From positions 1 through 45,880 of the forward strand of contig JAUCBJ010000926.1 in NCBI GenBank assembly GCA_032718475.1: a DNA stretch of 45,880 nt, read 5' to 3'. Under the pieces are notes generated by a model, which was not told where the DNA came from, ran no database searches, and was given only the letters and a program-made list of their open reading frames with translations. Origin of the DNA: Nemertoderma westbladi. Its lineage: Eukaryota; Animalia; Xenacoelomorpha. The stretch's first letter is position 1. Every line of letters starts with the position of its first letter. The translations under genes were made by a program, and so were the position numbers. Of this stretch, positions 28,201-44,449 are shown one piece after another.

Positions 28201-28393
28201 TTGTTCGCGTATAAATCCTCGAGAACGGGCCACCAGGAACCAGTTAGGTAGGATATCCCGTGTCTCTCACACAGACTGTAGATGACCCCCCAGTATTCTT
28301 CGCCAACGCAGAACCATTCGCAGTCTCCCGGCCCAATGTTTATGTTGATGCTGCACAACTGGTTGTTCTCTTGATGTCCCGGAGTACGGGCGC
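28186..28393 (-). CDS. KDM6A: KDM6A/UTX-like JmjC catalytic exon ([27 protein letters not shown]...[19 protein letters not shown])
   Basis: cccgctccag acceptor, CAG|GTTGGT donor; HQE Fe-binding motif intact; matches [30 protein letters not shown]. Confidence 0.96.
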
Positions 28394-28459
28394 CTGGAGC
28401 GGGGATAATATAAAGTATTACAATTTCATTGATTCATTGACTAATTCATATTAATACTA

Positions 28460-28628
28460 GTACTATAAAGTAAATAAAAGTAATATAAAGTAATATAAAG
28501 TAAAGAACGGTAATATAAAGTAAATAACAGTAATATAAAGTAAATAATAGAAATATAAAGTAAATAATAGTAATATTATAAAGTAAATAACAGTAATATA
28601 AAGTAAATAATAGTAATATAAAGTAAAA
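28460..28628. repeat. AT-rich degenerate intronic tandem repeat
   Basis: Recurring gtaatataaagtaaataa units. Confidence 0.75.
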
Positions 28629-28663
28629 GATATTAATATTGCAGCGAAATAAAGAGTTTATAC

Positions 28664-28797
28664 CTGGAACTTTCATATAAAGTTGAACTGTATTCATTCC
28701 CAATATGGAGTTGCCAACGTGACTGAGTAGATTGCCCGCGGATACAACCCGAGTGAATTGAGGTAATTTGGTAAGTTCGGTGAGTTGGGGTTGCCAT
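28664..28797 (-). CDS. KDM6A: KDM6A/UTX-like exon ([45 protein letters not shown])
   Basis: ttttag acceptor, CAG|GTATAA donor; near identical to UTX. Confidence 0.96.
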
Positions 28798-28874
28798 CTA
28801 AAATATTAATATTATTTATCCGGAATTAGAATATACAAAATGAATAAGGTTTGAAACCTTTTAAACCTTATTAA

Positions 28875-29140
28875 GTACACCATTTTGGTCCAAAATATGT
28901 CGACATTTTTTTTATGGTCTATTATAATACACCATTGAATGGTGTTTTAAATCTGAAAACCGCTATTTAATAGCTCTTTTAGTTTTCAAGTTATAACAAT
29001 TTCCATTTATGGAATCCTAACCTGTCATGTAGAATAGCATCTTAGGCACCTATATTCCAAATTATAGCCAAAACCAAACAATTTTGAAACGCTGAGAGTG
29101 ATAAATCGAAGAGTTGTTCGAAAATGGTGTACCCCCCCCT
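28875..29140. mobile_element. Possible degenerate MITE
   Basis: Inverted 12-mers gtacaccatttt and aaaatggtgtac, with TTAA nearby on both sides. Confidence 0.3.
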
Positions 29141-29249
29141 TAAGATAACGTAATTATAGCCTAAGCCTCCTTAATAAGTAAAGCCTCCTTTATATATCTA
29201 TTTTCTGAGGGCTCGACTCGGGGTCTCCCACCCAATATACAGGACTCAC

Positions 29250-29589
29250 TTAGTTTCATCGGATAGATCGACGTTGGTTCCGAACTTTAACGGTTTAAAC
29301 AAGCCGGTTCTTCTTCGCTTCGCCGGCGACGCCCCCATTTCGCTGTCCAGCTCCTCGACCTTCACCCCTACCATCTCCTCGTGCTCCTCCTTGAGGCTCT
29401 CCTGGAAGCTGGAGGCCTGGTACTGGGCGTACTTGGCGATGGTTGTGTAACTCCTAGAGGACTCACACAACCACACCTTACGGTCGCCTTCCCAGTTCTC
29501 CGTCGAGGGTTGGTTGACCTGGGAACGGACCTCCATCACGTGCTCCGGGTTGGCCTCGACCAAAGTCTTCGTAGAAAAAAGCGCCAAAT
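29250..29589 (-). CDS. KDM6A: KDM6A/UTX-like exon ([17 protein letters not shown]...[18 protein letters not shown]...[10 protein letters not shown])
   Basis: tttctctatag acceptor, AA|GTGAGT donor; matches [20 protein letters not shown]...KFGTNIDLSD. Confidence 0.96.
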
Positions 29590-30170
29590 CTATAGAGAAA
29601 AATAAGTTATTGGTAGAAAAACAGCGCCAAATCTAAAGAGAAAAATACGTTATTGGTAGAAAAAACGCGCCAAATCTATAGAGAAAAATATGTTATTGGT
29701 AGAAAAAAGCGCCAAATCTAGAGAAAAATACGTTATTGGTAGAAAAAAGCGCCAAATCTATAGAGAAAAATACGTTATTGGTAGAAAAAAGCGCCAAATC
29801 TATAGAGAAAAATACGTTATTGGTAGAAAAAAGCGCCAAATCTATAGAGAAAAATACGTTATTGGTAGAAAAAAGCGCCAAATCTATAGAGAAAAATACG
29901 TTATTGGTAGAAAAAAGCGCCAAATCTATAGAGAAAAATACGTTATTGGTAGAAAAAAGCGCCAAATCTATAGAGAAAAATACGTTATTGGTAGAAAAAA
30001 GCGCCAAATCTATAGAGAAAAATAAATTATTGGTAGAAAAACAGCGCCAAATCTATAGAGAAAAATACGTTATTGGTAGAAAAAAGCGCCAAATCTATAG
30101 AGAAAAATACGTTATTGGTAGAAAAACAGCGCCAAATCTATAGAGTCAAATAAATTATTGGTAGAAAAAA
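29571..30170. repeat. 42-bp tandem satellite, ~14 copies, derived from the splice acceptor of the 29589 exon
   Basis: Minus-strand unit caataacgtatttttctctatag|ATTTGGCGCTTTTTTCTAC; fills almost the whole intron. Confidence 0.95.
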
Positions 30171-30198
30171 AAGAACTAATGAAACTGAGTTTCCATAC

Positions 30199-30457
30199 CG
30201 AGTCTCAAGGCGGCGGCTAGACCCCGTATTATTGTGACTGGGTTCTCTTTGGCCTGGCAGTAGTTACTGATGGCCTCAGTAAACACATCCTTTCTGTTGT
30301 CAACGTAGATGGTGGGGGTCGGGGGCAGCAGCTGGTCCTTGGGTAGAGGGGGTGAAGGGGGGACGGGGGGCTGCGGGGGTCGAACTCGGGCCATGATTGC
30401 GTCGTCGGCGACCTCCCGATGTCCGTTCGAAGAGAGACGAGCCATGGCGGAGAGAAT
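30199..30457 (-). CDS. KDM6A: KDM6A/UTX-like exon (ILSAMARL...PPLPKDQLLPPTPTIYVDNRKDVF...NPVTIIRGLAAALRL)
   Basis: ttatag acceptor, G|GTATGG donor; matches UTX [24 protein letters not shown]...PVTVIRGLAGALKL. Confidence 0.94.
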
Positions 30458-31141
30458 CTATAATAATTAAATAAATTAAAGAATGAAATAAAGTTAAATA
30501 TCTACACTTTACCGGATCGATCCCTATTCAAGGATATAAAAAATTAATATCTGCGTCTGCGATAACAAAGACTGTCTTGTCACTAAAAGTTCGTAGTGAT
30601 AGAAACTTAATAAAAAAAATGATTTCCGGTAAATAAAGTTAATTACTCGCGCGTTTTAAATACGTAACTTCACCTAAGTAACCATTATTATTTATTTGCG
30701 TGGAATTAATTCGCACTACCAAATCGTTGGGCGACATATTTTCCAACTTTATATCGCAGTGCGACATTGTTTATCAGGTTTACACCATATTTGCGATGTA
30801 AGTCCAGCGATAGAGTAACGTGCCACTGTAACCCGCTCCTTTCCCTTAATTGATTCTCCATTCTAAATATAATCACGATAACGTCATTCGAATACACACT
30901 ATAATTAATTCACAATTACATGAAGGCAATACTGCAAAATAACGAAATGGGTGAGATTCGAACCAACGGCCACATTATTACATGGATAAGCCAACAGTCT
31001 GTGTTATCCATATCCACTATGTACGCTACGAGTGTAATAATTAATCAATAAATAATTATTAATTAATATGAAAGATAGCTGTGAACTGAAATCAGATAAA
31101 AGTTACAGATAGATAGACATGAAGTTTGGGATACAACTAAC

Positions 31142-31576
31142 CGCGGGGGTTGTGTGTATAGACACCGAGTTGGGGATGACCACCGGGACCGGCTTGTCCC
31201 GGGGCGACGCTCCCATTGGCGGTTGCCTAGCGACCCCAGGGGAGAGATTCTCCTCCTCCAGCGCGTCCAACGTGTCGTCCGAGCGCTCGAGCTCGGAGGC
31301 GGCGTTGGCCAGCAGGTTGCCTAGGTTACCCTCGTCGTCCAATAGGGAGCTGATATCGGCGTCGAGGTGGTCGCCTAGGAAGTCCATCGTGTGGACCGAG
31401 AGTTCGGGGAGACCGAGCTCGTCGGTAGGGGGCGTCTTCTTGGGGGCCGGCGGGGAGTAACCGTTGCTAGGTAACGAACGTTGCCAATCACACTCGGCGG
31501 GGGGGCGTTGCTGGGCAACCAAGGACGCTTGTTGTTTCGCGTACAACAACTGGTTCTGCAGGTGATGGAGAATTCC
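31142..31576 (-). CDS. KDM6A: KDM6A/UTX-like exon, low-complexity linker region (GILHHLQNQLLYAKQQ...PNSVSIHTTPA)
   Basis: ttttttag acceptor, GCG|GTTAGT donor, phase 0 at both ends, GC-rich open frame. Joins ILSAM, resembling UTX SVSIYPSSAEVLKAC. Confidence 0.8.
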
Positions 31577-32164
31577 CTAAAAAATTTAAATGAATTAAAT
31601 TTGAATCCGAAGGCGTCACAAATCGTACGAAACTCCAGCGAGTAAACCCAGAGAGTTAGTAACTCATTTGTATAACAACTTATATACGTTCATGGGGCCT
31701 TCGCGCAGCACGAGGATAAGTTTACGACAAACAAATAAAAATTCCATCACATGAAATTTAACAAAACCGCCAATCAATAGAAGAAAGAGTTCCTCCCTTT
31801 TTAATCTGTACTTAACAGCCGAATAAACATTTTAAATTTTTTTTACTTTTATACCGCTCCAGGGTAAATTCGACGCAAATAACAGCTGATTACTCCTAGA
31901 AAATACAACTAACCTGTTCTATTTTCTTTAACTTATTGTTTTGGTTAGAATAAGAGTGCAATTTGTAAACGCTCATTCCCCTTAATTTTTAATTTAACAT
32001 TAAGACGAAATATAAATTCGCCGAGATGGGATTTGCGTCCAACAACGCCCCCCCCCCCCACGTCTCCTTAGTGATCGATCTTTCTGGAATAACGTACATT
32101 TGTTATCACAGTTTGCAGATTTGGGGACTGACTCTTGACGCAGAAAATATTAAAACTAAGGTAA

Positions 32165-32755
32165 CAGTTCCGAATCCGCATAGCACTACATTTTTATACC
32201 ATAAATAATGTTTACCATGGCAGCATTTTAGAGTTCTAGAACAAATTATAAATATTATACAGTATTATTATACACTAATTCTAGAACTTAAATAAAATTA
32301 AAAATATAACGTTCTAGTACATATAGCTAGATATTTATTAATTTTTAATTAGCTTGTAATTTAAAAAAATATAAAAATTGTTTTATTAATGTTTGGTGCT
32401 TTGGAAATTTTCAATTTTCATTTAAATGTAGGCCTATTCAGAAATTGATTTAAAAATAAATTTTTTGATTTAATAGGTATTTTAATTTAAAAAAAATAGC
32501 TACGGCTGTATATGTTAGAAATATAACAATTTTCAATATTCATTTAAATGTATTCAGAAATTCATTTAAATACTTTTTTTTAATTTACTAGCTATTTTAA
32601 AATTTAAAATAAACTAGCTATATGTTCTAGAACGTAATATTATTTTATTTTATTTATGGTTTAGAATAGTATATAATTATTTTCATTTGTTCTACAACTC
32701 TTCAACGTTGCCATGTAACAATGATATATGTTTTAAAAATGTAGTGCTATACAGA
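32165..32755. mobile_element. AT-rich palindromic MITE/foldback element
   Basis: tagcactacattttta (32181) versus taaaaatgtagtgcta (~32734-32749), with extended internal inverted similarity and repeated gttctagaac; related to 43707-44264. Confidence 0.65.
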
Positions 32756-33364
32756 CCTCTAGTCAAAACGGTATTCCTTCTAGAATAATATTTTTTAAAA
32801 GGAACTACAGTATAATAAATTGAAATTATATATAAAAATTAACAAGTGCTACGATAAAAAAATTTGTACGGGAAAGTAGGAGAACGGAACCAGTGTCGAA
32901 AATAATAGCTATGCTTACCTAAAACATAGCTACCGTAAAATTTAGTTGCTTGAATATGAAAGGGACATTTGATCATTGAAGGATATTGCATCAAATGTGA
33001 ATTTCTAGAACTCTCCTCATATTATCAGGTCTCAATCTTTAAAATCAGTTCCAGATTTACTATACCTCTTCCACGTATGCGCCTCTGTACATTACTGTCG
33101 CTGCCTTAAGTTCTAATCAAAGTGGTTGTGAATTGTAACCATGGTAGCTAGTGGATGGAACCTATTAATATGCGAATATTTTATATTTTATTATTATATT
33201 CTAATTGATTGGCTGTAACTAAGCTACCAAAAGCGGGATGGGATTAATAACTGGTTATTTTCCCTAGGGCGAATTCGGATATTTTTTTACATAGCCCACC
33301 ATTGTATTGTTATTTTAAACAGTTTGTAATGGGGAATAACCACTTTTACAGACGAGATTGATGA

Positions 33365-34176
33365 CAGAGACATGTAGATATAGACTATAGATATAAGGAT
33401 ACAGAGACATGTAGATATAGACTATAGATATAAGGATACAGAGACATGTAGATATAGACTATAGGTATAAGGATACAGAGACATGTAGATATAGACTATA
33501 GGTATAAGGATACAGAGACATGTAGATATAGACTATAGGTATAAGGATACAGAGACATGTAGATAGATATAGACTATAGGTAGATATAAGGATACAGAGA
33601 CATGTAGATATAGACTATAGGTATAAGGATACAGAGACATGTAGATAGATATAGACTATAGGTATAATGATACAGAGACATGTAGATAGATATAGACTAT
33701 AGGTAGATATAAGGATACAGAGACATGTAGATATAGACTATAGGTATAAGGATACAGAGACATGTAGATAGATATAGACTATAGGTATAAGGATACAGAG
33801 ACATGTAGATAGATATAGACTATAGGTATAAGGATACAGAGACATGTAGATATAGACTATAGATATAAGGATACAGAGACATGTAGATATAGACTATAGG
33901 TATAAGGATACAGAGACATGTAGATATAGACTATAGGTATAAGGATACAGAGACATGTAGATAGATATAGACTATAGGTAGATATAAGGATACAGAGACA
34001 TGTAGATATAGACTATAGGTATAAGGATACAGAGACATGTAGATAGATATAGACTATAGGTAGGTATAAGGATACAGAGACATGTAGATAGATATAGACT
34101 ATAGGTATAAGGATACAGAGACATGTAGATAGATATAGACTATAGGTAGATATAAGGATACAGAGACATGTAGATA
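33365..34176. repeat. 34-42-bp tandem repeat
   Basis: Unit gatacagagacatgtagatatagactataggtataag with 4-bp indel variants; the MITE inserted into a TA of its last unit. Confidence 0.92.
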
Positions 34177-34650
34177 CACCATGTCCCAGAATATAGTGCC
34201 GTAATTCAGTGACACACACCCCTCTCCTAATTTTTTTACAAATCTTAATGAGATTGCATGAAATGTGAAACTGAGATAGTTTCACCTCCCGACCACTGAC
34301 TGGGAGAGCCAGAATTTTTATTTTAGCTTTCAATCTTTAGCTACAAGCGTTTAAAAAAGTGTCTCCAGCGATATTACCCAGTTACACCGCAGTTATTCTT
34401 CTACCTTGTAGCTGTTTGTTGGAACCAATGGAAAGCTGGCCATGCAAGGATTCCAAATATGTAACACAATTTGAATTTCGTTGAAAAATAGCTGAGATAT
34501 GAGCGTTCAAATGTTACATGGTTTTGCAACGACGCCGCGAGGCTATTATATTCTATTTAATAAATATTCTGGAACATTTGTTAAATGTACGAATAGCTAC
34601 GTAATAGTGTGATTAAAGATGTAATGCATTGTTGCCCAGCTACGTATTTG

Positions 34651-36905
34651 GCCCCCAATTGTCCCAACACCCTCTCCAGTAACCCCAATTATCCCAACAC
34701 CCCCTCCAGTAACCCCAATTATCCCAACACCCCCTCCAGTAACCCATATTGTCCCAACACCCCCTCCAGTAACCCATATTGTCCCAACACCCCCTCCAGT
34801 AACCCATATTGTCCCAACACCCCCTCCAGTAACCCATATTGTCCCAACACCCCCTCCAGTAACCCCAATTATCCCAACACCCCCTCCAGTAACCCATATT
34901 GTCCCAACACCCCCTCCAGTAACCCATATTGTCCCAACACCCCCTCCAGTAACCCATATTGTCCCAACACCCCCTCCAGTAACCCCAATTGTCCCAACAC
35001 CCCCTCCAGTAACCCCAATTGTCCCAACACCCCCTCCAGTAACCCCAATTGTCCCAACACCCCCTCCAGTAACCCCAATTGTCCCAACACCCCCTCCAGT
35101 AACCCCAATTGTCCCAACACCCCCTCCAGTAACCCATATTGTCCCAACACCCCCTCCAGTAACCCCAATTATCCCAACACCCCCTCCAGTAACCCATATT
35201 GTCCCAACACCCCCTCCAGTAACCCATATTGTCCCAACACCCCCTCCAGTAACCCATATTGTCCCAACACCCCCTCCAGTAACCCCAATTGTCCCAACAC
35301 CCCCTCCAGTACCCCCAATTATCCCAACACCCCCTCCAGTAACCCATATTGTCCCAACACCCCCTCCAGTAACCCATATTGTCCCAACACCCCCTCCAGT
35401 AACCCCAATTATCCCAACACCCCCTCCAGTAACCCATATTGTCCCAACACCCCCTCCAGTAACCCATATTGTCCCAACACCCCCTCCAGTAACCCATATT
35501 GTCCCAACACCCCCTCCAGTAACCCCAATTGTCCCAACACCCCCTCCAGTAACCCCAATTGTCCCAACACCCCCTCCAGTAACCCCAATTGTCCCAACAC
35601 CCCCTCCAGTAACCCCAATTGTCCCAACACCCCCTCCAGTAACCCCAATTATCCCAACACCCCCTCCAGTAACCCATATTGTCCCAACACCCCCTCCAGT
35701 AACCCATATTGTCCCAACACCCCCTCCAGTAACCCCAATTATCCCAACACCCCCTCCAGTAACCCATATTGTCCCAACACCCCCTCCAGTAACCCATATT
35801 GTCCCAACACCCCCTCCAGTAACCCATATTGTCCCAACACCCCCTCCAGTAACCCCAATTATCCCAACACCCCCTCCAGTAACCCATATTGTCCCAACAC
35901 CCCCTCCAGTAACCCATATTGTCCCAACACCCCCTCCAGTAACCCATATTGTCCCAACACCCCCTCCAGTAACCCCAATTGTCCCAACACCCCCTCCAGT
36001 ACCCCCAATTATCCCAACACCCCCTCCAGTAACCCATATTGTCCCAACACCCCCTCCAGTAACCCATATTGTCCCAACACCCCCTCCAGTAACCCATATT
36101 GTCCCAACACCCCCTCCAGTAACCCATATTGTCCCAACACCCCCTCCAGTAACCCATATTGTCCCAACACCCCCTCCAGTAACCCCAATTGTCCCAACAC
36201 CCCCTCCAGTAACCCCAATTGTCCCAACACCCCCTCCAGTAACCCCAATTGTCCCAACACCCCCTCCAGTAACCCCAATTGTCCCAACACCCCCTCCAGT
36301 AACCCCAATTGTCCCAACACCCCCTCCAGTAACCCATATTGTCCCAACACCCCCTCCAGTAACCCATATTGTCCCAACACCCCCTCCAGTACCCCCAATT
36401 ATCCCAACACCCCCTCCAGTAACCCATATTGTCCCAACACCCCCTCCAGTAACCCATATTGTCCCAACACCCCCTCCAGTAACCCATATTGTCCCAACAC
36501 CCCCTCCAGTAACCCATATTGTCCCAACACCCCCTCCAGTAACCCCAATTGTCCCAACACCCCCTCCAGTAACCCCAATTGTCCCAACACCCCCTCCAGT
36601 AACCCCAATTGTCCCAACACCCCCTCCAGTAACCCCAATTGTCCCAACACCCCCTCCAGTAACCCCAATTGTCCCAACACCCCCTCCAGTAACCCATATT
36701 GTCCCAACACCCCCTCCAGTAACCCATATTGTCCCAACACCCCCTCCAGTACCCCCAATTATCCCAACACCCCCTCCAGTAACCCATATTGTCCCAACAC
36801 CCCCTCCAGTAACCCATATTGTCCCAACACCCCCTCCAGTAACCCATATTGTCCCAACACCCTCTCCAGTAACCCCTAATGCCCCAAACCGCCCTCCAGT
36901 AACCC
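34651..36905 (+). repeat. 30-bp tandem repeat, ~75 copies, in frame with the LINE ORF (TPIVPTPPPV / THIVPTPPPV)
   Basis: Unit aacccca(t)attgtcccaacaccccctccagt with no indels; the frame is open from 34625 into the ATG at 36974. Confidence 0.95.
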
Positions 36906-36973
36906 AAACACGTCTACCAGCAAACACAATTGCATCAACACGACCCCCTTCTAACCAAACTGCGCGTACTACA

Positions 36974-39823
36974 ATGTGCATTGGTTGCTTGAAGCCGTAT
37001 CGCTACTTGGCCAGTCTGGAAAAGCACCACAAAGTCTGTTTACGTTTCCAGTCCGCTTCTAATCTGTTACTGTTTAGCGAACTCCCTTTCTGTGACGAAT
37101 CCAATATGAAATTTTCAAACAATAGCTCTGGTTACTACACATTAGTTGCATGGAATGTGGAAGGTGCGCGCTCTACGATCGACACAACAATGGATGACAC
37201 CTTCATAGACACTGATATCCTTCTCCTTTATGAAACGTTTACGACAGACTTGGTCATCCCAGGCTTCTCATGTCACAATGTGTCTTGTGAGAAACGCGAT
37301 TTAGGGCGCCCTTACGGTGGTATCACTATTGCCATTAATATGAAAACCGCAATGCGTCAGGAGCCCATTCATAAAAGCTCAACAGCTTTAGCACTACTAA
37401 CAAGTAACTTTGTGATAATATCTGCCTATTATCCCCCATCAACTGATGTCTCTGATATATTACTCGAGCTCACCACTATAATTGTAACTGCACGGGCAAA
37501 GTGCACTCTTCCAATACTGCTAACAGGTGATTTTAACTGCCGTTTAGATGGCCCTCATGATCGTGGAGACACACTATGCAGTGGCCTACTTGGCGCAGGA
37601 CTGAACTGCATTAACGACCACTCAATCCCTACATTTTACTCCTGGAATGGTCAGAGCGTAATCGACCTCGTTTTTGTCGACCACCTACTGGCTGATAAGG
37701 TCTCAGTAAGTATCCGCCCAACTACAAACACTAAACACCAGCGCGTTTATATAAAATATGAAACAACAAGCCCCATCAACTATAGGAAAGAGCGCTGTAA
37801 AGCAATCAAGAGGCTTGATGTAGACAAATTAGGCCACATTCTAACGACAGGAGATTTTCAATCTGCTATAGCCAATGGAGTAGACGATGTCTGTTCTTAC
37901 ATAACTAATGCTATTACAAATTCTTCGTTATCTAGTAAGCCGAGAAATTCCAAACCTTGGTTCAATCAAGAATGCTATCTGGCTAAACACGAACTCATGT
38001 CAAGTTTTCAGTTAATGAAACGGGCGCCAACACCCCTAAACAAGCAAAGATATTCGGAGTTAGCTCGTTCATATAAGAAGTTGATGCATACTAAAAAGAC
38101 ATTGTACGAGGCCCAAAAAGAGTTTAAGTTAATTCAAGAGTGCGAGTCTGACAAACAGAAATTTTGGAACATTCTGAAGACCGGCGACCAAGTCAAACCA
38201 GTTGCTCAACAAGTGTCAGAACAATCTTGGTTCACACATTTCTCAGAGTTGCTTTCAACCAAACACTCACCCCAACTACCGCCAATTCCAGATCAACCAA
38301 ATGATATACTAGATAAACAAATAGAGCCATCGGAAATAACGGTCGCTGTCAATAACGCCAAGCTCCACAAAGCAACGGGGCCAGATGGCGTGTCGAACGA
38401 GGCGCTAAAATCCGGTTTCGGTCATCTTCTTCCGTTCCTTCTGAGTCTGTTGTCCCTCTGTCTCACACTGGGAGTTTGCCCAATATCCTGGTTGACATCA
38501 TATCTGATACCACTGTATAAAGGAAAAGGCAAAAAGACATCCCCTGACAGTTATCGTGGCATAGCACTCCTTTCGTGTCTACTAAAACTATACACCGCTA
38601 TTCTGTTTGAACGTCTGTACGTGTTTGCCGAGATCAGTGGCATCCTTCCTGCTGCTCAATACGGCTTCCGTCGAGGACTCTCAACGGTGATGGCTGTCAA
38701 GAACCTATATGGTTTAATAAATATAGCTCTTCAGTCGGCCGGAGGCCATACATATTGTGTTTTCGTCGACTTCACTAAGGCGTTCGACTCCATCAACAGA
38801 GAAACTCTCTGCCAGCGTCTAGTAATACATGGCATCAGTCGAAAATTTATCACTGCTATATGGGCACTAATCGCAGTTAACTATGTATGTATTTGCATTG
38901 GAACATATGTATTGGACCCAATCACTCAATCGGTCGGAGTAGTGCAAGGTGACAAACTCTCTCCCCTTTTATTCAGCTTGTTCGTTGCTGACCTCCCATC
39001 TATCCTCATGGCCGCATGCTGCATCGTCATAATGTACGCTGATGATCTCGTCATAGTCGGCGATTCGATCGCAGTCACCCAGGACGCACTGGACAGATTA
39101 TCAGAATATTGTCGGGTCAATGACCTGAAGGTCAATATAAAGAAAACTAAGGCAGTCAAATTCCGCAGAGGTGGCCGTTTAGCTTCTGGTGATAAATTAT
39201 ATTATAATGGCACTTTATTGGAGTTTCAAAATACGTTCAACTACTTAGGCGTAGTGCTAGCAACAAAAAATGGTCCCACAGCTCACTTCCAGCACTTATA
39301 CAAAAAAGGCGTGGCCTGCTCTATTCGTATTGCAACTAAGGTAAATCTACATCATATATCGTTAGCCACGGCAAAACGTTTGTGGGCAACTGTAATCTAC
39401 CCGTCGACAACATACGGATGCACTATTTTTACGTCTAATGAAAACGTTCCGCGGCTGGAACACATCCATCGAGTGCGAGCATTTTACTACAAACTTTGGT
39501 GCGGCATCAGTAAATACTCGTCGTCAACTGCAATCCTTAACGCAATAGATAACTGCGATGACGCGGAAATTAATCTCGTGGACCTAACCGGTTTTCGTCG
39601 CCGCGCAGCAGCCCAGTTAATGGCGAACGGCTGCCACCATCGGATTTGTAAAATTTCGAACTGCTGGAGACCCACTGATCAATGTGTCTGCTGGTTGTGC
39701 AATAATAGTGCCACATCTACCGCCCACTACCTGCAATGCACCGGAATGCCAGCCAACCTGTCTACATTAAGATGCGCGCTGTATCTGATGAGCGTAGACC
39801 AACCACTTCCCCATCCACCGTGA
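36974..39823 (+). CDS. LINE ORF2-type protein: N-terminal C2HC zinc finger, AP endonuclease, reverse transcriptase, C-terminal Cys/His cluster
   Basis: CIGC-x12-H-x3-C; APE motifs WNVEG, LYET, YYPP, GDFN, SVIDL; RT motifs GPDG, YRGIALL, QYGFR, FVDFTKAFDS, QGDKLSPLLF, YADD, YLG; terminal CWLC-x8-H-x3-C. Confidence 0.95.
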   Translation: MCIGCLKPYRYLASLEKHHKVCLRFQSASNLLLFSELPFCDESNMKFSNNSSGYYTLVAWNVEGARSTIDTTMDDTFIDTDILLLYETFTTDLVIPGFSCHNVSCEKRDLGRPYGGITIAINMKTAMRQEPIHKSSTALALLTSNFVIISAYYPPSTDVSDILLELTTIIVTARAKCTLPILLTGDFNCRLDGPHDRGDTLCSGLLGAGLNCINDHSIPTFYSWNGQSVIDLVFVDHLLADKVSVSIRPTTNTKHQRVYIKYETTSPINYRKERCKAIKRLDVDKLGHILTTGDFQSAIANGVDDVCSYITNAITNSSLSSKPRNSKPWFNQECYLAKHELMSSFQLMKRAPTPLNKQRYSELARSYKKLMHTKKTLYEAQKEFKLIQECESDKQKFWNILKTGDQVKPVAQQVSEQSWFTHFSELLSTKHSPQLPPIPDQPNDILDKQIEPSEITVAVNNAKLHKATGPDGVSNEALKSGFGHLLPFLLSLLSLCLTLGVCPISWLTSYLIPLYKGKGKKTSPDSYRGIALLSCLLKLYTAILFERLYVFAEISGILPAAQYGFRRGLSTVMAVKNLYGLINIALQSAGGHTYCVFVDFTKAFDSINRETLCQRLVIHGISRKFITAIWALIAVNYVCICIGTYVLDPITQSVGVVQGDKLSPLLFSLFVADLPSILMAACCIVIMYADDLVIVGDSIAVTQDALDRLSEYCRVNDLKVNIKKTKAVKFRRGGRLASGDKLYYNGTLLEFQNTFNYLGVVLATKNGPTAHFQHLYKKGVACSIRIATKVNLHHISLATAKRLWATVIYPSTTYGCTIFTSNENVPRLEHIHRVRAFYYKLWCGISKYSSSTAILNAIDNCDDAEINLVDLTGFRRRAAAQLMANGCHHRICKISNCWRPTDQCVCWLCNNSATSTAHYLQCTGMPANLSTLRCALYLMSVDQPLPHPP

Positions 39824-40362
39824 CTTATTTTATTATAGTTTTAGTAACAGTATTTTAATATTTATATTATATTATTATTTATTTTACGGAAATTTGTGCT
39901 TCAATTGATTAATTTTACTAAGCTCCATATGTTGGAATAAAGAAGTCAATGATCATAAACAAAATATTCCAGATTATGATGCATTTATTAAATAGAATAA
40001 AATAGCCTCGCGCAGGTGCATAACCATGCAACATTTGAACGCCCATATCTCAGCTATTTTTTAACGAAATTCAAATTGTGTTACATATTTGGAATGTACC
40101 AACAAACAGGTATAAGGTAGAAGAATAACTGCGGTGTAACTGGTGTAATATAGACGGAGACACTTTTTTCAACGCTTGTAGCTAAAGATTGAAAGCAAAA
40201 ATAAAAATTCTGGCTCACCCAGTCTGTGGTCGGGAGGTGAAACTATCTCAGTATCTCTTGTTTCAAATTTCATGCAATCTGATTAAGATTTGTAGAAAAA
40301 TTAGGGAGGGGGGGGGGGGGGGGGTGTCACTGAATTACGACACTATATTCTGGGACATGGTG

Positions 40363-40496
40363 TATAGACTGTGTATTTGTGTTTTATAATTTAGATATAG
40401 ATCGTGTATTTGTGTTTTATAATTTAGATATAGATCGTGTATTTGTGTTTTATAATTTAGATATAGATCGTGTATTTGAGTTTTATAATTTAGATT
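40363..40496. repeat. 33-bp minisatellite, ~4 copies
   Basis: Unit atagatcgtgtatttgtgttttataatttagat. Confidence 0.9.
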
Positions 40497-40855: not shown

Positions 40856-41293
40856 ACAAAGTCGTGCACAATAAACAACCTGATTTTCAAGGATAGTATC
40901 CTTATCGAAGCAACATACCTTCATCAGTAACATAATAATAGATTCAGATAGAAACTGGATTGAAAACTAAAGGTTTGGATTTAATGCTTTTTTTATTAAT
41001 GCTAATTTAATAATTTAACGCCAAATGTGTCTTTATTTTCAATTAAAATAATGAAATGAAAACTAAACAATAAATAAATAATTATCGCTAATTCAGATTT
41101 TAAAAATAAATCGTGGTTTTTACGTCACCACCAGTGGAACATGGAACCACAAAGACAATATTGTAGGAAGTCCGTAAAATTATCAGTTAATGTAAAAATA
41201 AACGTCTTGAGACTCAACTTATAAAACCATTTATCTTCTCCATCTTGTCGCCTCTCAGCACTCCACTCCCAATATTGCCTGCGTCTACAACAA

Positions 41294-42270
41294 CTACTTT
41301 TCCTCATTCTTCTCACGAAGAACCGCCAGGGTTATTTTTTTCCTCCCAATACTAACGACCACACTGACAACTCTAAGAAACTCCAGTAGACCCCCTATGG
41401 CGCCCATAATCACGGCGACTAGTAGCAACCTGGTGGAGGAGGGGGAGAGACCCACCACGAACCCGACGAGAGTGCGATCCAACGTGGTGCGAACCGCGTC
41501 GGCGGCGGGACACCGGCCGTCCGCCGCCAACATATTGAGTTCGCCGACGATGTTGTCGGTGTCGAGGAGTACCGATATGACAGAGTGGAGGTCGCAGTCC
41601 ACAGCGGGCCGGGATGGTGGGGAGTGGAGCGGTGGGTGGCCGGCGCGTCCAGCCACACTTGGGTCCGCAAAGAGCGGCGGACGGATGGACTCCGTCGGTA
41701 GACCGTCCGTCGGCACGTTGCTACCGGAGTTAACCAACCCGTTGATGTAGTGGAACTGGACGCCGTCGACGGTAAAGTGGAGCGACGAGTCGACGAGACG
41801 GTCGCAGTCGACTCGGTGCGACCGAACCAGACTCAACGAACCGTCCGGCAACAACTGACTCACAACGTCGCTGTCATGGTGACGGTGACTCACCAAGGGT
41901 CGGTTGTGACAGACCCCCTGGTACCTGAGGGCCTGCAGCACCGTGTAGTTGGCGACCTCGGCACACACTACCACCCCAACGAGGTCTCCGAATGAAACCC
42001 CTTTGAATCCGGGCCCCTCTGTCATACGGAAGTAGCGAGTTGGCAGCTTACTGGCCAGCGGTTTCCACACCAGATGTTCTCCCTCTTGCCGTCTACAACC
42101 CTGGTCTAAGATTTCCGCTTGAATCTTTTTAACCTGTAATATCATCTCCTCCCCGATATCCTCCACATTACCACCATCGCTTTCTTTGACTTCTCTTACA
42201 AACTCAACTTTATCTTTTCCACCAGTTTTAGGAACTCGGAACACAAGAACACCATCGGTAACCAGCCAAC
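41294..42270 (-). CDS. Class III (herpes gB-like) viral-fusogen-like glycoprotein, exon 2 (core helix, domain IV-like region, TM anchor, basic tail)
   Basis: GCRRQEGEHLVWKPLASKLP...GDLVGVVVCAEV...GVCHNRPLVS...VVSQLLPDGSLSLVRSHRVDC parallels herpes gB WCELQN..LW.E..KLNP...GDVMAVSTCVPV...GACYSRPLVS...GQLGENNELRL..D..EPC; hydrophobic C-terminal segment followed by RKK. Confidence 0.75.
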
Positions 42271-42274
42271 CTAC

Positions 42275-42684
42275 GATGGTACTAAAATATCCGCCCAAAT
42301 TTCAATCAACTTTCTAATGATATTTTCCTTTATTAAATTTTCTATATTCCGGAGGGACAAAATCACATTAAATGGCCAAATTTAACTTGTAATATTACCA
42401 AAAATTAATAGCTGAAAATGGCCGGTATTTCCGGTAAAAAACAAGAAAATTTGTTTTTAAAAAAATATTATCTAACAATTATTTGCTCTAGAACAATATT
42501 TTATAACAAAATTAAAATAAAATATATGTTCCAGAACATTTTCAAAAAACCAAGTAATAAAAACTACCAAGTATACAAAATTTGGAAGGTGTGCCCAAAA
42601 TGGATTAATGGGGTGTTAATGGGGTACCATTAATGCCAAACTGATACATTTCTTTAGAAATTTGGCGGCTAAATTAGTACCATC
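42275..42684. mobile_element. 410-bp TIR element nearly coincident with the intron 42271-42680 (introner-like)
   Basis: Left end GATGGTACTAAAATATCCGCCCAAATTTC versus reverse complement of right end GATGGTACTAATTTAGCCGCCAAATTTC (25/29 identical). Confidence 0.7.
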
Positions 42685-43524
42685 TTCATCTTCCTGTATG
42701 CCGTCCGTCTCCTTAGCAACGTACTCGGTGACGTTATAGGCCTCGACGCCCAACGCGGGAACTCTCAGCACCGATACGTTCCCTCCATCGCTAACGACTT
42801 CGGCGAGGAACGTTGAGGAACGCAACGGAACGAACCCGGATGGCAACGGACCCGGCTCCTCCCAGACGACCACGGTCCCGTTGGCCTGGAGACGGCAGAA
42901 CAGCTGGTCGGGCCGGCCGCAACGCGTCGAGGGACCCCAGGGGGTCGTCAGGGACCACCCCCGCTGCCCGGCCGTCGGGGGCAGGAAGAAACACTCCGCG
43001 GTCTCCAGACGGCACCCTGTCGCTATGGTAACGCATGTCTCCGTCCCGTTCGGACACTTTGTGGTGTTGCTAAGCGACCGAGACGCAATGATTCCACCAC
43101 CGGCAGTCCCCATGACCCCGTCGTCGCCCTCTACCGGAGCCTCAGTGCATTGCTTATCACGAACCCAAGTCTTACAGTCCGAGACACTCACATTGTACCC
43201 AATGGAGTGACTCATCTCGGTAACCATGGCTACCCGACCATAGAAGGCGGACCAGAAGGAGTCTGCAACGGGTAGGGCGCGACGCTCACGACGCCAGCGG
43301 TCGTAGAAACAGGCGGTGGCGACGAAACGGAAAGGAACAGGGTTCCGCTGGTAGACAGTAACGTTCCGTAGCTTTATATCTACGGAGGGGGCGGGAGGGG
43401 GGCATGGGGGGCGGTCGGCCAGACGGTAGAAGCGGTTGGGGGGCGAATCGTCCACACACAGGTATAGACTAGCGGAGGCGTAGCAGACAGAAAGACAGAC
43501 GCAGATAAACGCAGTTGAAACCAT
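42681..43524 (-). CDS. Class III viral-fusogen-like glycoprotein, exon 1 (signal peptide, Cys-rich ectodomain)
   Basis: Signal peptide MVSTAFICVCLSVCYASA, many Cys, several N-x-S/T sites, candidate fusion loop SFWSAFYG. Phase-1 donor GATG|GTACT joins cgtag|GT TGG in frame. Confidence 0.7.
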
Positions 43525-43706
43525 CGCAGTTAGTTAAACACTCCGTGGCAATAAGTATTAGCTACACAGACACAACGTTCTAGAACTCCAATTAATTTAG
43601 AAACTAGAATTTGTTTTTAATTCACCGGGTAAGAATTAGATTTATTGTATTGTACAGGTAATAATATTATATTACGGTATTTAAAGTTAAGGTTTAATTC
43701 GGCTAG

Positions 43707-44264
43707 AGTTCCGTTTGCAGTCGCATTTGATATTTTGATATTAATTAATGAAATGATATACTTTTTGCACAAAGTGTCACTAACTTCGTTGCTAATCGGC
43801 AGATTGTAATTTTACAAAACATGATTTATTATACAAACATTTTTTTGAAATTTCTAAAAATACTGTAATTTTTTGTGTTCTAGAACATTAGTAGATATGT
43901 ATTTTTATGGTAGTTAGTGTTTTTTTACTAGCTAGTACCTTTTATAATTATAAAAAATGTAAAACATTAATATTTCATGTTTAAACTGTTGCAGAATATA
44001 TTAATGAACAAAAATATTGATGATTTTATAGCAGTTTATACTTTTTGCGTGGTAACAATGATTTATGTTATAAAAAATGTAGTTTTTTTTTAAATTACTA
44101 TCCATTTTAAATTTGAAATATGACTATATGTTCTAGAACATTGTATTTTTAATTTTATTTATGTTCTAGAACAGTGTATAATAATAATATTTTGTTCTAG
44201 AATTCTACAATATTGCTATGGTAACAATGATTTATATTATAAAAATGCGACTGCATACGGAACT
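43707..44264. mobile_element. AT-rich MITE, same family as 32165-32755
   Basis: Inverted ends agttccgtttgcagtcgcattt and aaatgcgactgcatacggaact; internal gttctagaac repeats. Confidence 0.65.
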
Positions 44265-44449
44265 GTTCCCAAAAATTCATTATTGTGAAATATAATACAT
44301 TTTTTTAAGGGGGGGGGGGGGGGGTCAAAAAAGTAGATTTTTCAATTACAATCTCCTCTGGTGCAATTTTTATGAGGATTTCAAAACTTCCCGTTTGTTA
44401 TTAGCTAATGTAGTTCAAAGTTAAGTGTCATTAAAAATGGTAGGCCTAA

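Follow-up and report, generated by a model that had tools for sequence, protein, structure and literature searches.

Envelope (env) genes of the gB type are widespread among invertebrate retroelements, and the C2-type errantivirus ENV proteins described from Bryozoa, Nematoda, Branchiopoda and Collembola have a signal peptide, a five-domain class III layout and a transmembrane (TM) segment (Chary and Hayashi, PMC13524379, in the portions of that study and its supplement used here). Orphan class III genes have been reported as well: solo chuvirus-derived glycoproteins of mosquitoes, of chuvirus/BEL-Pao type, have already been proposed as domesticated antiviral genes (Dezordi et al., PMC7642597). 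The adopted envelopes known so far are class I or F-type, and for class III we found only proposals such as the one for mosquitoes; no report of a spliced, domesticated class III envelope was found in the open literature, which, subscription papers aside, was the scope of our search. Drosophila Iris and Iris-B are orphan invertebrate env genes of the F-type, with expression and synteny shown for Iris; Iris-B seemed to be a pseudogene until RT-PCR revealed a new intron (PMC1262188, in part). Among short mobile elements, those of the ISL2EU group have GG...CC ends flanked by AT, with the target context A|AT|T (PMC4482050, in part).

The env gene described here lies on the minus strand of a 45,880-nt stretch of the Nemertoderma westbladi genome (contig JAUCBJ010000926.1, positions 1 to 45,880; hereafter the window). 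Like errantivirus ENV, its product has a predicted signal peptide and TM segment, a putative five-domain class III layout and, by eye, the same domain I-II cysteine and motif order; unlike the ENV genes in the portions of PMC13524379 used here, it is accompanied by neither gag nor pol nor LTRs within the window and carries an insert with terminal inverted repeats (TIRs). With herpesvirus gB (PF00606) it shares the domain III/IV motifs, including RPLVS, but the match is only 22–24 bits and the product would have about 600 residues, versus 800–900 for the full-length gB chains listed. The mosquito glycoproteins are likewise orphan class III genes without retroelement flanks for which domestication is proposed, but they are of another type, and none is described with a TIR insert in the sections of PMC7642597 considered. 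Iris-B provides a parallel for a newly made intron in an orphan invertebrate env, but that intron arose from exon sequence and not from a TIR element (PMC1262188).

Layout and identity of the envelope gene

The gene runs from an ATG at 43524 to a stop codon at 41294 (Table 1). Its 5' half comprises 844 nt with a GC content of 0.61 and its 3' half 977 nt with a GC content of 0.57, and between them lies a 410-nt spacer with a GC content of 0.28. Translated separately, the halves give 281 and 324 codons with no internal stop, and their lengths are phase-compatible with a phase-1, 606-codon product, in agreement with the two GC-rich, stop-free ORFs described in the sequence-only reading. Base shuffles reach such open frame lengths in 4/2000 cases for the 5' half and 0/2000 for the 3' half, and the other frames contain 5–15 stops. 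The earlier proposal of a signal peptide, a TM segment and a Cys-rich, N-glycosylated ectodomain also stands as a prediction, given the hydropathy profile, the 14 + 6 cysteines and the 7 + 1 N-glycosylation sequons (5' half + 3' half). The gene had moreover been called intact. However, the genomic copy is interrupted: the unspliced frame reads through into the spacer and stops after 302 codons, at 42616.

Table 1. Positions of the features discussed (residues are numbered within the half concerned)
Feature	Position	Strand	Remarks
5' half of gB-type env	42681..43524	-	Signal peptide, domain I, most of domain II; 281 codons
Predicted signal peptide	43465..43524	-	About residues 1–20; hydropathy only
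Aromatic candidate fusion loop	near residues 88–98	-	Domain I of 5' half
AT-rich insert, likely MITE	42275..42684	.	TIR arms 42275–42301 / 42658–42684; 4-nt offset from proposed intron
3' half of gB-type env	41294..42270	-	Last strand of domain II, linker, domains III–V, TM, short basic tail, stop
Stretch aligning to herpesvirus gB domains III/IV	41738..42145	-	phmmer residues 42–177; PF00606 residues 45–150
Predicted TM segment	41342..41440	-	Hydropathy; residues 277–309 of 3' half
AATAAA, possible poly(A) signal	41032..41037	-	About 255 nt past stop; consensus match only
Utx/KDM6 exons	28290..31577	-	Same strand as env, downstream; KDM6A/UTY E 6e-37 for one exon; short introns between
Second inverted-repeat element, MITE-like	43698..44273	.	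About 175 nt upstream of env ATG

A GC-rich island begins at the env ATG and finishes soon past the stop codon. The GC3 of the halves (0.65–0.69) resembles that of the Utx frames, which include some intron (0.65–0.76), and is unlike the nearby LINE, for which the value of 0.41–0.48 covers all codon positions of an element read one base off frame. Past the env stop, at 41028–41270 on the minus strand, a G/A-rich stretch is followed by a TG...CA segment with TATAA and AATAAA, which we take to bear a loose resemblance to a decayed 3' LTR; no partner copy of it was found within the window. The purine-rich stretch was considered as a polypurine tract and rejected, since it contains no 9-purine run and there is no LTR pair. 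On the other side of the gene, an acceptor-like TGTGTCTGTGTAG is present at about 43560–43575 on the minus strand, some 37 nt ahead of the ATG, via which env could be spliced to an upstream donor, perhaps even one of Utx.

Judged from its sequence, the gene holds as a gB-type (class III) envelope that is an orphan in the window. For the 3' half, 43 of the 44 matches among PDB sequences (phmmer, E up to 10) are herpesvirus gB, with a best E of 7.8e-4 (3.7e-4 with a shorter query), and the alignment spans the C..Q, W, GD, C..RPLVS and QL motifs (residues 42–177). This agrees with the gB domain III/IV motif order noted previously, if weakly: Pfam PF00606 gives an E of 2.8e-5 and 24.1 bits, under the 43-bit gathering cut-off. 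Word-index protein searches with the 3' half returned no match, and HMMER, run with this half, found no true relative among 1.84 billion protein representatives; its sole match there, a bacterial repeat protein, was rejected because the score is spread over six repeats. Single-sequence searches of that size require approximately 36 bits, so that distant ENV proteins can escape them. Neither viral contigs nor metagenomes yielded loci related to the 3' half. In the ESM Atlas, this half scores 0.92–0.93 against clusters that are unnamed and mostly from rotifers; the recognition value is under the reliable level. AlphaFold models made without an alignment have pLDDT values of 43.7 and 31.4 for the two halves and gave no Foldseek match at E<=0.001; the best-predicted part of the single-sequence 3'-half model is the C-terminal helix.

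The 5' half, whole or in pieces, has no gB match in phmmer, Pfam or HMMER searches, no related loci in viral contigs, and ion-channel matches in the ESM Atlas that were rejected, all being below 0.9. Compared by eye with part of the rows for domains I-II in supplementary file 3 of PMC13524379 (Chary and Hayashi), its cysteines and motifs come in the same order as in non-insect C2-type errantivirus ENV, and it has VYQRN in common with one bryozoan row. Three loose C2-type patterns, defined post hoc, occur in order at residues 58–72, 112–126 and 194–221, an arrangement reached by 0/100000 shuffles, and the two strict ones among them have no further occurrence in the six frames of the window. Of the rows compared by eye, those of C2-type errantiviruses fit domains I-II better than the herpes, rhabdo, orthomyxo, baculo and insect rows. 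Placed against the HSV and the bryozoan rows from that source, again by eye, the last part of the 5' half and the first part of the 3' half correspond to consecutive segments closing domain II, which is what an insertion into a single ORF would give. The protein collections searched yielded no close relative of the env protein.

The 410-nt insert and the proposed splice sites

The sequence-only reading took 42680–42271 to be a spliced GT-AG intron, overlooking the inverted repeats that lie almost at its ends. The insert bounded by these repeats is most likely a MITE that entered domain II of env. In the best terminal register, its arms match at 22/27 positions. This value was attained in 0/5000 shuffles, and among 1173 real windows of the region the highest was 20, inside another TIR element; the 5/27 mismatches may reflect age or be a family trait. 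The insert folds with its ends paired (z -4.98; 0/100 shuffles), and with 410 nt, a GC content of 0.28 and 5–13 stops per frame it is short, non-coding and AT-rich. A motif resembling TGTTCTAGAAC occurs twice in the insert and elsewhere in the window only at 32.2–32.6 kb and 43.6–44.2 kb, at sites in or beside inverted-repeat elements. Rfam has no match for the insert. Within the window no second copy was found, only the two arms matching each other, and the TIR pattern occurs in 0 viral and 0 metagenome contigs.

The inner ends of the insert read GG...CC and are flanked by AT on both sides. Together with its short, non-coding and hairpin-forming character, this resembles the ISL2EU group (PMC4482050) and introners (PMC7789003), as described in the parts of those papers used. 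Unlike ISL2EU elements, the insert does not have the A|AT|T context at its flanks, and neither a second copy nor a transposase for it was found. A textbook 2-bp AT duplication is, by arithmetic, incompatible with the phase of the two env halves. Spy elements were rejected as the class of the insert, their target AAA|TTT (PMC4122938, in part) being absent.

The spacer that spans the insert does start with GT and end with AG. The proposed donor, GTACTA, which lies within the terminal stem of the insert, is a poorer site than those of Utx (GTATGG and GTGAGT). The proposed acceptor has an A+T content of 0.60 and an extra AG within 20 nt, whereas all 4 of 4 Utx acceptors have an A+T content of 0.80–1.00 and no extra AG; an AG that precedes it by 11 nt closes a run of T, as at the Utx sites, and does not keep the phase. 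Of the GT-AG pairs nearby, 20/63 are frame-compatible, and an in-phase AG would fall within 10 nt of the element end by chance with a probability of approximately 0.18. According to the fold prediction, the terminal stem could mask the nearer AG and thereby favour the in-phase one. Given that the insert is most likely a MITE, that its acceptor is poorer than those of the host and that an in-phase AG would arise by chance in about 18% of cases, the argument from an intron to domestication largely falls. Of the earlier interpretation, the assignment to class III/gB type and the orphan setting survive; the step from an intron-bearing, frame-intact gene to host co-option does not, the anatomy of the spacer being that of a TIR transposon insertion.

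Origin and fate of the gene

We consider it the best explanation, with a probability of about 0.6, that this is an orphan gB-type env, likely from an errantivirus-like LTR retroelement, that was split in domain II by a probable recent MITE which is likely not usefully spliced, so that no working fusogen would be made. An env-only remnant, probably derived from an errantivirus-like element, would have received a MITE in domain II recently. In any transcript the frame would then end after 302 codons, leading either to degradation or to a secreted domain I-II fragment without an anchor, so that no anchored fusogen would be made. That the halves are still open would be due solely to the recency of the insertion and of the loss of any earlier constraint. 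We infer the retroelement source, the MITE identity, the young age and the transcript outcome; the matching TIRs, the end-to-end fold, the TGTTCTAGAAC-like motif shared with neighbouring elements, the consecutive halves, the poor acceptor and the young insertions nearby all speak for this reading. Against it, the probability that both halves stay open under neutrality is 0.16–0.53 at 1% divergence and 0.0001–0.04 at 5%, and the arms of the insert differ at 5/27 positions, yet both halves are stop-free. LTR and pol are absent, though a young retroelement relic would usually retain them. Further points against a split relic are the Utx-like GC3 of env, an insert with no fit to a 2-bp duplication, no A|AT|T context and no second copy, a terminal stem that could favour the in-phase AG, and the lack of a close relative pinning the source. 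Since both halves are open, the flanks are gone and GC3 is Utx-like, env may have stayed under selection until lately, or may still be, and these same features leave domestication possible.

Domestication would mean that the host has adopted a class III env from which the MITE is removed as a new introner-like intron, with the GT coming from the end of the element and the AG lying just outside it. We regard this as unlikely, even though GT and AG stand in phase a few bases from the insert ends, the halves are open with predicted signal peptide, TM segment and cysteines kept, retroelement flanks are missing, GC3 is host-like, possible poly(A) signals are present, and precedents exist in TIR-bearing introners (PMC7789003) and Drosophila Iris-B (PMC1262188), both sources being used in part. 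The weak donor within the terminal stem, the acceptor unlike those of the host and in competition with an out-of-phase AG, and the frequency with which compatible GT-AG pairs and in-phase AGs arise nearby all count against it. Moreover, most exonic MITE insertions remain unspliced. A domesticated gene would encode a membrane protein of 606 residues; its likelier role would be that of an antiviral or anti-retroelement factor that blocks receptors, with cell-cell fusion less likely. Slightly more doubtful again is the fully specified version, an invertebrate domesticated gB-type class III env nested in Utx and kept working by the splicing of a MITE as a newborn intron, with a role as fusogen or entry blocker. 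That the GT-AG ends, phase compatibility and low GC belong to a long-standing spliceosomal intron of the usual kind, with ends that pair fortuitously, is very improbable, in view of inverted repeats beyond chance (0/5000 shuffles; fold 0/100) and a motif common to neighbouring elements. We give just as little credence to a secreted decoy, in which selection keeps the 302-codon read-through product with its predicted signal peptide and domains I-II; the frame is indeed open that far, but the 324-codon 3' half, still open, would go unexplained, and an early stop of this kind usually triggers decay.

A different source, with the same anatomy and fate, is unlikely to a degree similar to domestication. 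Candidates would be a Maverick/Polinton, a BEL/Pao element, a genome-copied chuvirus-like mRNA or an unsampled herpes-like virus. Herpesvirus gB is the sole protein to which env has a scored similarity; the supplements of PMC13524379, whose sequence rows compared here cover domains I-II only, yielded no RPLV motif; and a GC-rich island from the ATG to soon past the stop is what a copied single-gene mRNA would give. Mavericks carry the gB-like MFUS-1 (bioRxiv 10.1101/2022.07.12.499685), and a chuvirus-like source of a class III glycoprotein is possible from the accounts in PMC7642597 and PMC10084718, each source being drawn on in part. By contrast, domains I-II are closer, by eye, to the C2-type errantivirus rows, and no Pfam mobile or viral gene family was found in the flank ORFs scanned. 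In the likely case of a split relic, env is the fossil of a gB-type envelope, divergent and orphan, that widens the range of class III fusogens sampled so far, and it shows how a TIR insertion can be mistaken for an intron. Should the insert be spliced out and selection act on the gene, env would become a candidate for a class III envelope adopted by its host, and the insert a case of intron birth from a MITE.

Genomic neighbourhood

The env gene is probably nested within a Utx/KDM6 intron. The most upstream Utx exon found starts mid-gene and there is no TPR match upstream, suggesting a large Utx intron of more than 14 kb; the TPR search covered 66 minus-strand ORFs of at least 25 codons in the non-tandem stretches of 31.6–45.9 kb, in which short exons could be missed. 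The earlier statement that no gag, pol or LTR is nearby is upheld for the flanks scanned: gag, pol and integrase families were not found in the 66 minus-strand ORFs and 24 chosen plus-strand ORFs of flanks that reach, upstream, to the end of the window 2.36 kb from the ATG, no long direct repeat within the window spans env as paired LTRs would, and Pfam revealed no Maverick/Polinton polB, integrase or capsid family in the ORFs scanned.

The nearby reverse transcriptase is part of a LINE on the strand opposite to env. This LINE, just downstream of env, has a stop-free 973-codon endonuclease-RT ORF at a distance of 1.5 kb and is nested in a long-TIR element, suggesting that the neighbourhood collects (young) insertions. 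The enclosing element, at 34174–40365, has inverted repeats of approximately 390 nt that are 83% alike, and the LINE ORF is preceded in frame by a 2.25-kb array of 30-nt tandem repeats, giving one 1732-codon frame. Upstream of env, the MITE-like element at 43698–44273 is related to another at about 32150–32780 (76–80% alike over 170–180 nt) and may have disturbed or supplied the env promoter. On the downstream side of Utx, satellite arrays with units of 31, 42, 28/34 and 27 nt extend over approximately 25 kb. Within a Utx intron, a tandem array (29571–30170) extends as far as the acceptor; the 42-nt unit of this array is similar to the opening codons of the exon that follows.
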